Notes under the pieces: model-generated | The model's database searches: none | What the model was told of the DNA's origin: nothing | Seen by the model: only the letters and a program-made list of their open reading frames with translations | Source: Vermamoeba vermiformis | Lineage: Eukaryota | Direction: 5' to 3' | Length of the DNA stretch: 64,000 nucleotides | NCBI GenBank assembly: GCA_045837725.1 | Contig: JBEWZL010000132.1 | Coordinates: 186,001 to 250,000 of the forward strand | Part shown: positions 52,030 through 56,975 of the stretch, one piece after another | Numbering within the stretch: the stretch's first letter is position 1 | Layout of the letters: each line of letters starts with the position of its first letter | Program-made: the position numbers and the translations under genes

Positions 52030-53029
52030 ATGGTATGTATAAATGGCATATTCAGCACTGCTAGCAGCGATTTGTAGATATCGAAGTTGACGAACGGGCA
52101 TCCAGAATCTTGCATTCGAAGTCAAAAATACTATTAACAATAGATGTATAATATCGCATTCAGTTATTATTATTTATACTGTGCGTTACTATTGTATTTG
52201 TAGTTTTGGCTTCGAATCAGATTTTTATTATCGTTCTTTATCTTTATTATAATTATTATCGTTCGTCAATGTAATAATTTACGTTATTATAATATGAAAC
52301 GAATTATTATACAACAAATGCAGATAATTGATACTAAATAATAATTTTTTTTTAGGGTATCGACCTTGATCGTAAACACAAGAAGAACACTAACCGTAAA
52401 GTCGCCAAGTCTGACGATCCTTATCTTAAGCTTTTGATTAAGGTACATGTTAGGCAGTGGAAACATGATAATGTTGAATCCAAAAATTATTGTGGATCGT
52501 CTACGCCAATTTTATCACCACACCCAATAATATTTATTAACGCGAATTATTGTAGCTTTATGCTTTCTTGGCCCGCAGAACCGAAGCCAAGTTCAACAAG
52601 ATCATCCTCAAGCGATTGATGATGTCCAAGATGAACCGCCCTCCTCTTTCCTTGTCCCGTGTTGCCAAGTTCTTGAAGGGCAAGAACGAGAAGACCATCG
52701 CCGTTGTTGTTGGTACCGTCACTGACGACGTTCGTTTGTTGGACGTTCCCAAGATCAGCGTTTGCGCACTTCGCTTCACCGAATCCGCTCGTGCTCGCAT
52801 CGTCAAGGCTGGAGGTCAAGTTTTGACTTTGGACCAATTGGCTATTCAACGACCCACTGGTGCCAACACTTTGTTGTTGAGAGGTCCTCGTAACGCCCGT
52901 GAATCCGTTAGACACTTCCGTGGCATTCACGGCAAACACGCTGCTCCTTATGTCCGTGGAGAGTCCAAGACTGGTCGCAAGTTCGAACGTGCCCGTGGTA
53001 GACGTAACAGCCGTGGCTTCAAGATCTAA
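52030..53029 (+). CDS. RPL18: 60S ribosomal protein eL18
   Basis: ATG, intron, then [29 protein letters not shown] and FERARGRR; strong codon bias. Confidence 0.97.
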
Positions 53030-53243: not shown

Positions 53244-54313
53244 TTAGTTCTTGCAACAGCCACCCTTCTCTGTCGTCGTGTTGGTCGGCTCTTCAATAAT
53301 AATTCTGGGCTTCGTAGTCGCGCTGGGCAGCTTGGTGGCACTGGACTCGCGCTCGACAATGCCTGTGGACGATAATTACGGACTGTTAGGTACTGCCCTG
53401 TTAGGTATACGTTCGCGCTTGTACGTACGCTTGGTGAGATCCAAGAACAGTTCAGCAATGCCTTTGTCTAGCTTCGCAGAGGTGTGGTAGTGTTTCGCTC
53501 CGACACTCGCAGCATATCTAATAGGAAAGAATAGGGCTTAGTCTCAGTGTCACCGATAGAGTCGCTGCACGTACTTCTCGGCCTCGTCCACGGTGACCAC
53601 GCGATTAGCTTCAAGATCGATCTTGTTGCCCACAATGGCGAGTTCAATGTCTTTGCCGAGCATTTTGCGCAGCTCTTTGACCCAGTTCTGTACGCGCACA
53701 AATGAATTGCGATCTGTAATGTCATACACGAGAATAGCACCTAATGCAACTCATTAAGCACTAGCAATAAGTACAATAAGATGGTGATGGCACGTACCAT
53801 TAGAGTCGCGATAGTAAATAGGACCTAACGAGCTGTAAACGAAAATAAATTAGTGGATCTGGCGCGAATGGTGTTAAATAATAATATTTATTAACAAACG
53901 GTACTATAGAAATAATAATATTATTTTAATTAGTGACTTACTGAAATCTTTCTTGTCCTGCTGTGTCCTATAATTGAAACAAATATTAGTCGAAAATTAC
54001 AGCGAATAGTCTCAAAATATGCTTATAATTATTAATAAAATAGCAGTGCGTATTTACCCAAATAGCCAAGTTTGCACGCTTGCCATCCGGCAGATTTATG
54101 CGTTTATTTTGGTACGAGGCTTGCAATGTTGTTTCGTGTGTAGGATTGAATTTGTTGACTGTAAATCGCAGAAATAATGATGTCTTGCCCACACTACCTA
54201 TTAATAGCATCGAGGAGTTATAATTTTGCTTGCCACAATTAAAAGAATCATTTTTGAGGTCGATCCGCACCTTCACCGAGTAGTACGACTTTATATTGCT
54301 TTAAATCTGCCAT
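53244..54313 (-). CDS. RAB21: Rab21-like small GTPase
   Basis: KVVLLGEGSVGKTSL, TTLQASY, WDTAGQERF..LGPIYYRDSNGA, GNKIDL and GGCCKN*. Confidence 0.92.
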
Positions 54314-54483
54314 ATTATAAATAATTATGTGGTGTGTATATATTACAAGTTAATAATGACAATTATGTCGCTGTGTTTATGTGAAAATGCGAAAATTGGC
54401 TCTGCGCCATAAAATTGATAAACTAAAAGCTGGTTCTCGGCAAGCAGTGCACTTCTGTTATTAATAGTCATATATAGTACACC

Positions 54484-55012
54484 ATGTTGCGTACTGGCTT
54501 GAACGGTATCATCAAATCGACTATGCGTCGAAGCAGTGTCAAAACAAATCTTCGATCGAGTGTTGTCAGCAATACAAAACAGCAAAATAAACAGCACCAC
54601 GGCAACAAAGGTGCTAGTATGGCTGCATTGATTGTTGTCGGACAGAAAAAAGTCTCAATTGTGCAAGAGGACAGCAAATCTCGAAAAATAGGGTAAAATA
54701 TTATTTAATTTTTAATTGCTGATTTGTTGATGCTAATTTAATATGTAATAGCGGCAATTACGATAGCAGAAAGCCATGGACATTTGATATTTATTTCCCC
54801 TTTTTCACAGGTAATTATTTTTTATGTAATATTTGTATTTTGCGCCAAATTTTTGTTTGATTTTTCTAATTAATAATAACCACTTATATACTCATGTTCA
54901 ATATGAAATTGCATTTGTAGTTTACAAATTCCCTTTTTTAATTTTTTTTGCTTGCCATCCACTTTTACGAACGATATTCTTTCTACCTATATTAGATGAT
55001 GATGGTACTTGA
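54484..55012 (+). CDS. ~94-aa mitochondrial-presequence-like microprotein ending DDDGT (alternative terminal exon gives DDDGV, stop at 55071)
   Basis: Exons 54484-54692 and 54752-54810, then 54996-55012 or 55055-55071; splice phases are compatible. Confidence 0.65.
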
Positions 55013-55850
55013 CCAAGCCAAACAATACCTGACCCTCTATATATTCAACACTAGATGACGATGGCGTTTGATTTTTGCCGAATATTCTTGTCACAAACGC
55101 TTTCAACTTGCGAATTTAATTAAATAACCCAAATGGAGTGATACGCTTTTAATACCAATAACTATACTCAACCCTTCATGCACCATTCATGCCCAGTCTT
55201 GTATTCATATGCACTTGTAATATATTCCCGTTGTTATTAAAATCGTGCCACACCAGATCTGCCCTTGAGAATTGTTTGTATCAAAGATCAAGTCAGGCAC
55301 GCATGATGTAATAGTATTTGACTTAGAGCACTGCCACTGATGGCAGGTGGTGTTGACGATTACACATCCAGTTGTAGTAACACCTTTTGAGACGAGCGCG
55401 ATGACAGCGCCATTCATGTGCACAGCTCGTGTTTCATCCCACATGGTCCTGGCTGTTGAGTGGCAGTGACGGTCAGTGCTTCAAAGCGTGGCACTTCGCC
55501 TCACACCTTGCAACCTAGTGCGATGTGTACCACAACGATCACGCGATCATATCCATCATATCGGCGGCAGTCACATGCCGCACAACACTATGCACACATT
55601 GACTGCACAAAGAGGATGTGTGTGGAAAGTGTGCAGTCGTCCACTGAGCTGGGCTGTGTGCTGCTGGTACGTGGTGTGACACTCTTTGACGCGTGTCTCA
55701 CATCCTGTTTCTCACCCGATTGTGTTGAGTGTTTGTTTTGCACTCGTCTTAACTGAGTACCACAAGGTGGTGGAGCGAAGGAACAGAGCTAATAGCTGTA
55801 AAGCCATCGTGCAGTGTTCACATCGCGCATTAAATGTTCTGTACAGTCGT

Positions 55851-56975
55851 TTATTTGTTGCATTTACATGTCGCTGATGTGCCACAGTCACAAAAGAATC
55901 TGAAGAACAGATCAGTACCAGACCACGCGTCAGTGCAATAGCTACATACCCTGTGGATGTCACTGGCTCACTCAGCTTGTGGCCTGCGTGACAAATGCGT
56001 GCACAAACATCGCAACAGCCCTCAGAGTCGATCAGGCCACACGTGTAGCACTGGAACCAGACCTGTGGCGCGTATTCACGACCAGTGGCAGTGAATGTGC
56101 ACTTGTTGTTCTTGCGCGCATTCTCGACGCGTTGTGTCATCGTGTTCTGCTTCTCTTTGGCAATGGCCTGGCCCAGAGTCTCCATGATGAACTCCATCTG
56201 TGCATTGCTGATGGGTGCGTCAATGTCAGGGTCCTCCATGTGTTCGAACAACCACTCCATGGCGAGGTCAGGGTTCATGCTGTGACACGTGTCAATCACC
56301 GAGTGCTAGTCGACTGTCAAAGTGTCACTTACGAATTGAGCAGCAAGGCTTTGTTAGCTCTGTTGGCAGGGAAGCCCATGTCAATCATGGTGTTGAGGGC
56401 CTGCTCTGCGTGTGGGAATGCGCGCTTGATCTCTTGCTGTATTCGCTGTGCGGGTGTGAGCTGTGGTGGAGGGGGCATAAAGGACGAAACTATGTCCTGC
56501 ACCATGCTCTGGATCTGCTCTGTGGTAGGCTGGGGTGCCACAGGCTGTCAAACAGTGTCAGTTAGATAACACGTGCTATATATAAGCTCCTTACTGTCTG
56601 TGGTGGCGGTGCTTCAACTTTCGGCTTGGCTGTCAGCTGCAGAAATTTGAGTTGAATTCGTCGTGGTGCTAGTCTTCAATTACTTACTGAGTATAAAAAC
56701 AGCACGTGATCGTTTTCATTTACTGGCCGAAGTCCTTGTTCATCTGTAATATCTCTTCCTTGAAAAATCAATTTGGTTTCTGGTGGGATGTACAGTCCTT
56801 TGGTCGACAAAATTGCTTTAATTTTATTTTTGATGGCATTGATCTAAAATATATTTTCATTAATTATGTGATATTTTAAAATTGAGCAATTAAATTTGTT
56901 AATTACCCCTTCATTTTTCTCGACTTGAATTCTAAACGGATCTTTGACTGCCACTGTGCGCACCCAAATGTTCAT
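55851..56975 (-). CDS. UBL-UBA-UBR-box protein (UBAC1-like N-terminal half)
   Basis: KLIFQGRDI (UBL), MIDMGFP..ANKALLLN..AMEWLFEH.EDPDID (UBA) and CTF..Q.WFQCYTC..CCDVCARICHAGH..FFCDCG (UBR box). Confidence 0.85.

Follow-up and report, generated by a model that had tools for sequence, protein, structure and literature searches.

The window is the whole stretch of DNA that was analysed, 64,000 nt of Vermamoeba vermiformis. A three-exon gene on its plus strand gives two 94-aa products, which end in DDDGT-stop or DDDGV-stop. The host genome is intron-rich and 43 Mb in size, and the gene is single-copy at the DNA level according to the genome search. At least one related locus exists (L004, the sole one among the metagenome matches listed), and the comparison is one of two sequences. 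The parts of the gene up to its last stop codon are as follows.

54484 (+): ATG of the microprotein, from the sequence
54484–54692 (+): exon 1, 69 codons plus 2 nt, from the sequence; covered by contigs in four of four runs
54693–54751 (+): intron 1, 59 nt, phase 2; junction in three of four runs
54752–54810 (+): exon 2, whose last base is the first base of an Asp codon, from contigs and alignment
54811 (+): phase-1 donor, from the sequence and junctions
54811–54995 (+): short form of intron 2, 185 nt, phase 1, from junctions
54996–55012 (+): coding segment of mini-exon A, 17 nt, which completes D-D-D-G-T-stop; junction in X1, X2 and X20
55013–55054 (+): spacer, 3' UTR in isoform A and intron end in isoform B, from the alignment with L004
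55055–55071 (+): coding segment of mini-exon B, 17 nt, which completes D-D-D-G-V-stop; junction in X1 and, with two contigs, in X20

The RNA evidence consists of contigs assembled from 4 of 23 public runs, which come from four studies and include X1, X2, X4 and X20. The junction from 54810 to 54996 was observed in three of the four runs and that from 54810 to 55055 in two of the four; the contig depths are unsuited to ranking the isoforms, and rare forms are lost in contigs. Using the acceptor at 55055, intron 2 is 244 nt long according to the public-run contigs. GT..AG ends are present at every junction seen (intron 1 and both forms of intron 2). The preliminary description had placed the donor and the two acceptors at these positions and had proposed the RNA junctions as the check. 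The sites are present in the sequence, and spliced contigs reach both DDDG segments, so that the gene survived the refuting test set there. It had also regarded the segments as duplicated alternative last exons. The two 17-nt segments and their junctions were confirmed, but the contig spliced at 54996 continues across mini-exon B to 55193. Thus the two sites, 59 nt apart, are tandem acceptors with one 3' end, and not separate last exons.

One contig of X1 is unspliced in intron 2, and it may represent a retained intron, pre-mRNA or DNA. Given this contig and a conserved frame at 54811–54860, a third, intron-retaining isoform may exist. In the comparison of 54811–54860 with L004:1473–1546, the frame into intron 2 retains GNY and ILRQI across a 6-nt indel. 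The 5' part of intron 2 is 72% identical to L004. A second conserved intronic block is located at 54901–54946 (42 of 51 columns) and holds a conserved AG at 54920. This AG was considered as an acceptor giving a longer hydrophobic DDDGT form and was rejected: the form is in frame in the window and stopped in L004, and no junction was observed.

The N-terminus of the microprotein is basic, Ser/Thr-rich and presequence-like, with no acidic residue until position 61. The amphipathic moment is modest, falling from 0.54 to 0.3, and is limited to about 15 residues at the start. From the N-terminal composition only, we infer that the microprotein would be targeted to mitochondria. Exon 1 encodes a short hydrophobic patch, ALIVV, which is located 42–46 residues from the C-terminal end and is common to the C238 paralogue described below. 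Exon 2 encodes a variable linker followed by the aromatic patch KPWTFDIYFPFFT, which is invariant in L004. At the C-terminus of the 94-aa protein, Trp79, D90–D92 and G93 are present. No hydrophobic stretch of transmembrane length was found in the 94-aa product.

Conservation of the gene

L004 retains the length of the gene, the intron phases, both mini-exons and the last 18 residues, whereas the 11 residues ahead of the invariant 18 (the linker) are largely replaced. Exon 1 is 87% identical, with 44 codons identical, 17 synonymous and 8 non-synonymous, and a 28-residue stretch of it is unchanged. Four-fold sites differ at 10 of 27 positions in exon 1 and at 19 of 38 in the neighbour gene. Mini-exon A is identical at 16 of 17 nt, the sole change being synonymous, mini-exon B at 17 of 17 nt, and the spacer 55013–55054 at 42 of 44 columns. 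Intron 1 (40 of 74 columns identical) resembles ordinary introns; the eight neighbouring introns are 52% identical to L004, near the alignment floor.

As described previously, copies A and B differ within DDDG only at synonymous positions, and two such sites were found. The preliminary description took this as implying selection on the peptide. By themselves, two synonymous differences carry little weight as evidence, since conservation of the DNA extends over the entire region. The last 18 residues are, however, invariant in L004, and two further predicted genes end in DDG-x-stop; these observations, from one relative and two predicted paralogues, support selection on the DDDG-x tail. The pattern acceptor-DDDG-x-stop has two matches in the 43-Mb genome, both at this locus, and one in the reversed control. 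About 0.7 single chance matches are expected, and the odds of a second copy less than 100 nt away are near 1e-6. The junctions, the conservation in L004 and the N-terminal composition support the earlier view that the microprotein is real, under selection and alternatively spliced, and that its start resembles a presequence. The gene is under selection at both the peptide and the RNA level.

Acceptor region and RNA folding

The non-coding sequence that surrounds the two acceptors is unusually conserved. The element and two predicted stems are located as follows.

54947–55081 (+): conserved core that takes in both acceptors, with 130 of 137 columns identical to L004; likely an element that controls splicing
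54953–54959 (+): intronic heptamer complementary to mini-exon A (and B), tentatively predicted stem
55094–55101 (+): octamer complementary to the Gly-Val-stop codons of mini-exon B, tentatively predicted stem

In the non-coding part of the core, 97 of 103 positions (94%) are identical, compared with 194 of 381 (51%) in the last 42 nt of the eight neighbouring introns, whose ends are approximate by a few nt (Fisher p 5e-18). The conservation of the acceptor region is a fact. Because the non-coding DNA near the acceptors is 94% identical against 51% in neighbouring introns, the choice of acceptor looks to be under selection. Acceptor B has a consensus branch site, CTGAC, at 55029–55033 (position −26). 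Acceptor A is preceded by an AG-free zone of 73 nt, and no YTRAY branch site lies nearer than −58. In seven of the eight neighbouring introns the branch site is at −16 to −21.

RNA structure over the mini-exons is a lead from folding models. Both mini-exon stems are predicted alike in the window and in L004, and the single difference in mini-exon A amounts to a G-C pair in place of a G-U pair. The heptamer stem gave shuffle p values of 0.06 in the window and 0.03 in L004, and the octamer stem gave 0.06 and 0.10. In the local pre-mRNA fold the octamer stem has a pair probability above 0.85, against 0.07–0.21 in the mature mRNAs. A diverged strain in X20 has lost 10 nt between the arms of the octamer stem, with no listed change within the arms. 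The outer arms differ between the window and L004 yet remain complementary (shuffle p 0.003 and 0.008, for arms picked after viewing the fold). Folding of the whole region is no better than that of shuffles (z −0.02; also −0.96 and −1.41; range 0.18 to −1.41), and no two-sided covariation was found among 34 pairs in the two sequences compared. An Rfam search over 54200–56000 gave only one match (E 2, far below the gathering score), so that no known structured RNA family, such as a riboswitch, SECIS element or snoRNA, was recognized there.

Pairing with 55094–55101 is predicted for the very codons in which B differs from A. Thus the change from Thr to Val may be a by-product of RNA pairing.

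3' end and neighbouring genes

The features beyond the stop codons, and the flanking genes, are as follows.

55072–55253 (+): shared 3' UTR; contig ends at 55247 and 55253 in two studies
55216 and 55236 (+): TGTAA and ATTAAA, likely polyadenylation signals, both retained in L004
55254–55256 (+): proposed third acceptor, AG kept in L004, without a junction; downstream frames unrelated in the two genomes
55257–55850 (no strand): gap, likely intergenic plus the 3' UTR of the convergent gene; unconserved, single-copy
55851–56860 (−): convergent neighbour with UBA and UBR-box zinc finger (Pfam UBA_7, zf-UBR); stop at 55851–55853, 5' end approximate
53250–54312 (−): divergent neighbour, Ras-family (Rab-like) GTPase (Pfam Ras); 3' end approximate

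The two contig ends lie just past TGTAA and ATTAAA, which are likely the polyadenylation signals of the microprotein gene; they give a weak hint of a poly(A) site near 55250. The 3' UTR is about 180–240 nt long depending on the isoform, of which about 180 nt is shared. No exon junction downstream of either stop was seen in the contigs of the four runs, from which rare forms may drop out. Tuning by nonsense-mediated decay, for which the preliminary description had proposed a test, is therefore unlikely with 3' UTRs of this length. No downstream ORF was found on the microprotein mRNA, and the 3' UTR contains no conserved ORF. Readthrough of the stop codon, or a selenoprotein, was rejected: the frames past both stops are shifted between the window and L004, and by the 10-nt loss in X20.

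The possible third acceptor of the preliminary description, at 55256, finds no support in the RNA contigs (no junction to 55257 in any of the four runs); it also lacks a branch site (no YTRAY within 60 nt before the AG), and the frames in L004 are unrelated. As the AG is conserved, and the C238 gene has a distal predicted acceptor, the site is kept as a candidate, though an improbable one.

The long 3' region of about 800 nt that had been proposed resolves into the shared 3' UTR and a 594-nt gap. The gap is covered by no contig, with zero depth over 55310–55901 in all four runs, which is not proof of silence. Its counterpart in L004 is 340 nt long and cannot be aligned (best match 9 nt). The gap sequence is single-copy in the genome and gave no Rfam or Pfam match. 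A 91-codon minus-strand ORF at 55205–55480 was considered as a gene of the gap and rejected, with no Pfam hit and no L004 counterpart. The gap 55257–55850 is not part of the finding.

Both neighbouring genes are syntenic in L004. Relatives of the UBA/UBR-box gene also bear a ubiquitin domain; with a ubiquitin-like start, the gene has an unusual shuttle-like architecture. Four relatives were found among 38 candidates, three of them at 43–46% identity. Spliced contig ends of the GTPase gene are present in X4 and X20. The ATG codons of the GTPase and the microprotein are arranged head to head, 171 nt apart, and the intervening 54313–54483 is likely a shared promoter. Short blocks in it are conserved in L004, e.g. 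around 54340–54350 and 54405–54425. The minus-strand frame at 52556–53029 is presumably ribosomal protein eL18; it gave no Pfam or PDB sequence match, possibly owing to a library gap. Elsewhere, one 18-mer occurs six times (G000:C126, C143, C150 and C291; L008, L009, L012–L014 and L017), which suggests a repeated element. Further identical matches recur in C278 and C297, and in C200 and C221.

Predicted paralogues

The genome was searched for further genes with the same tail. The pattern acceptor-DDG-x-stop has 11 genomic matches, and 11 in the reversed control. As the motif counts are not above the control, the matches were put through a gene-model script. Two of the 11 gave short spliced models with an acid-free, basic, hydroxyl-rich start. 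As a control, 500 arbitrary mini-exons (from 1089) were tested, and 3 gave such models, one of which is the C238 gene itself. In the whole hunt, 81 non-self acceptor-type matches were modelled, and three positives in two genes were obtained (1 of 38, 1 of 7 and 1 of 36); 4 of the 34 matches from one pattern list had no locus and were left out. Six unspliced matches, and L006, L007, L016 and L025, were judged by eye to be chance or pieces of other genes. The codon pattern of ALIVV was uninformative, with 184 matches in the genome and 243 in the control. The two genes are as follows.

G000:C238, about 90380–91238 (−): predicted paralogue of 101–102 aa (ATG 91238; L065:1300–2167), from a gene model
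G000:C298, 36869–37384 (−): predicted 131-aa gene ending in DDGV-stop (ATG 37384; L024:1501–2016), from a gene model

The predicted C238 protein shares the IIK-T start, the ALIVV patch and the KP-aromatic patch with the 94-aa microprotein. Its alignment score was reached by none of 2000 shuffles, with or without the tail, and exon 1 alone gave a BLASTP E value of 0.002. Predicted acceptors of its last intron lead to DDT-stop, DDGG-stop and DAST-stop, and the unspliced frame ends in DGG-stop. Two GT sites, separated by 4 nt, are both candidates for its donor, and the tail is acidic with either. The C238 gene is thus predicted to be a sequence paralogue with its own tandem mini-exons.

C298 shares the build and the tail only (shuffle p 0.70, no detectable similarity elsewhere), and its membership is predicted solely from its build. 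Its last intron, 63 nt, is open and in frame; retention adds 21 mostly hydrophobic residues and keeps the tail.

All three genes have intron phases 2 then 1, and the last intron splits an Asp codon. In the first 30 residues, each has no D/E, 6 R/K and 9–10 S/T. The two predicted proteins have in common with the microprotein a presequence-like start, an aromatic patch and a DDG-x-stop mini-exon. Together the three genes suggest an undescribed family of peptides in this genome, which are likely mitochondrial and regulatory. The family may be larger than three genes, because the search took in only some tail patterns. No clear RNA element is common to the paralogues beyond short AT-rich words and the exon starts.

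Homologue and literature searches

The homology queries were exon 1 and exon-2 profiles, from which tail-only relatives or short divergent peptides may escape. The exon 1 search gave two candidates, both near-identical proteins. The exon-1 profile matched only P0002 among 1.84 billion representatives, and the exon-2 profile matched none of eight candidates. With these queries and profiles no homologues were found past relatives of 87–95% identity. Profile and word searches gave no plant proteins, no Pfam family matched the microprotein, and scans of viral and prokaryotic contigs gave no match. The first hits of an Atlas search were at 0.76, and none was usable.

In the literature searched, mostly outside subscription papers, no description was found of a DDDG-x-stop microprotein or such a family, or of the C-terminus of NFD6/NOXY2. 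PMC13351739 and PMC13578949 contained no relevant term, and PMC8390513 and PMC3083342 contained gene lists only.

Comparison with known systems

The nearest known kind is probably that of the plant NFD6/NOXY2-like proteins. These are about 100 aa long, with a mitochondrial presequence, little globular content and a conserved middle helix. They have several alternative C-termini from tandem acceptors, some with an acidic-Gly tail. The three genes described here encode 94, 102 and 131 aa, and their N-terminal composition would fit a presequence. Alternative short C-termini were found here by two junctions and are predicted for C238. In contrast, the middle helix is not evident in the microprotein, and the profile and word searches showed no sequence link with the plant proteins. 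At5g47455 is presumably a member of the plant family. NFD6/NOXY2-like is a named plant family (PMC12903786), and PMC8358658 describes mitochondrial defects and mitochondrial aggregates in noxy2 mutants; SR-protein-dependent intron retention of At5g47455 is reported in PMC5362245. The noxy2 phenotype possibly parallels the presumed location of the microprotein.

In its layout the microprotein resembles MifM of Bacillus subtilis. According to PMC4423224, MifM is 95 aa long and carries a targeting segment at its N-terminus; it also has a critical Trp and a run of DEED, after which the stall sites A-G-S follow. The microprotein has 94 aa, a targeting-like start, and Trp, an acidic run and small residues near the C-terminus; homology is not claimed. 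MifM has a transmembrane segment, stalls in elongation and controls the downstream yidC2 via an mRNA hairpin, whereas the microprotein has a presequence-like start, would act on a eukaryotic ribosome in a hypothetical stall, and has no downstream ORF. With MifM, SecM and VemP it would share a targeting start, here presequence-like, joined to a conserved end of tunnel length (18 residues). As the regulated downstream gene on the same mRNA is absent, the microprotein falls outside the class of bacterial arrest peptides.

XBP1u brings its own mRNA to the ER, where IRE1 splices it. Like the microprotein, with which it has no sequence in common, it has an aromatic-rich C-terminal segment near the stop, and such a segment could hold a targeting signal on the ribosome. 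EMRE/SMDT1, like other mitochondrial microproteins with acidic tails, has a presequence, about 100 aa, and hydrophobic residues followed by an Asp-rich C-terminus, and is similar to the microprotein in these traits. It differs in its transmembrane helix and Pfam model; the microprotein has neither a transmembrane-length stretch nor a Pfam hit. We know of no case in which tandem mini-exons alter the last residue.

Possible functions of the microprotein

We tentatively favour, at somewhat less than even confidence, the explanation that the microprotein is imported into mitochondria and acts there by means of its C-terminal motif of aromatic and acidic residues, which would serve as a signal for binding or turnover. 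The basic N-terminus would be a cleavable presequence, and the middle would be an unstructured linker. The free C-terminus would dock on a partner, protease or enzyme of the matrix or inner membrane. The conserved RNA element would set the ratio of the branch-site-poor acceptor A to the consensus acceptor B. This ratio would tune the last residue together with 59 nt of 3' UTR, and the last residue would in turn tune binding or turnover. Action in trans after import is favoured for two reasons: a stall would have no downstream ORF to control, and part of the middle is conserved as well. The equal motif counts in the genome and the reversed control argue against this explanation.

A co-translational stalling sensor is a serious rival, though less probable. 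With the aromatic patch in the exit tunnel and DDG in the peptidyl transferase centre, the ribosome would halt on reaching the stop codon or shortly ahead of it. The mitochondrial import machinery would take hold of the exposed presequence, and the pull of this machinery, or the supply of eIF5A or polyamine, would release the pause. Such a pause would affect either the stability of the mRNA or the release of the peptide, and its strength would be tuned by splice choice. The invariant last 18 residues directly abut the stop, which speaks for this explanation. According to the sources, DDG is an eIF5A-dependent stall tripeptide (PMC8807479, PMC9718836), pausing without eIF5A occurs both at D-first motifs with Pro/Gly and at stop codons (PMC5499558), and stalls on mitochondrial proteins undergoing co-translational import are relieved by eIF5A (PMC11551009). 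The distance of ALIVV from the end is in the range of peak pulling force for XBP1u constructs (PMC6624018), and the layout parallels that of MifM as described above. These parallels with MifM, XBP1u and eIF5A are analogies, not tests. However, the DDG pauses in these sources were reported for cells or extracts depleted of eIF5A, and motifs of this sort are frequent. The mRNA has no downstream ORF to regulate, the 28 unchanged residues of exon 1 are mostly outside the tunnel at termination, and the distance from patch to tail varies across the three genes.

An extended form of the stalling sensor would make these presequence microproteins a eukaryotic counterpart of MifM. They would stall the cytosolic ribosome at DDG-x-stop, be freed by import pull or eIF5A, and thereby report import capacity, the RNA element choosing between the mini-exons to set the pause; plant NFD6/NOXY2 possibly follow the same principle. 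We consider this extended form unlikely.

In another explanation, which we consider quite unlikely, RNA-level control is the main selected feature. The acceptor element would regulate the output of one peptide through splicing efficiency, intron retention or mRNA stability, and the Thr/Val difference would be nearly neutral and derived from base pairing. The non-coding core (94%) is better conserved than the coding exon 1 (87%), both genomes are predicted to form the two stems, with the G-U to G-C change in mini-exon A, the post hoc outer arms diverge yet stay complementary, and the unspliced contig is present in X1. On the other hand, the region folds no better than shuffles, none of the 34 pairs shows two-sided change, and the paralogues have no clear common element, yet C238 has tandem mini-exons with differing last residues.

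The least probable explanation of all is a basic and disordered microprotein outside mitochondria, in the nucleolus, in the cytosol or on the ribosome, with an acidic tail that would bind a cytosolic partner or serve as a C-terminal degron. In its favour, the amphipathic moment is modest and extends over only some 15 residues at the start, and basic Ser-rich starts are also known from RNA-binding proteins; against it, all three genes start with an acid-free, Arg/Lys- and Ser/Thr-rich 30-mer, the usual presequence pattern.

Implications

The microprotein would be one of the nuclear-encoded organellar microproteins. Its anatomy is real, unusual and testable. It is rare for alternative splicing to be conserved so as to alter one terminal residue, and regulated splicing is usually considered to be sparse in compact protist genomes. 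The three-member family has no database relatives and is known by its build and a tail of four to five residues, and this is a type missed by annotation and homology search. A tail that indeed stalls ribosomes under import control would make the microprotein the first monitor of mitochondrial import akin to SecM/MifM. Should the NFD6/NOXY2 link prove true, a plant family of obscure mechanism would span eukaryotes, with its working end pinpointed. The Thr and Val isoforms, together with the paralogues, are natural variants for probing the role of the tail.
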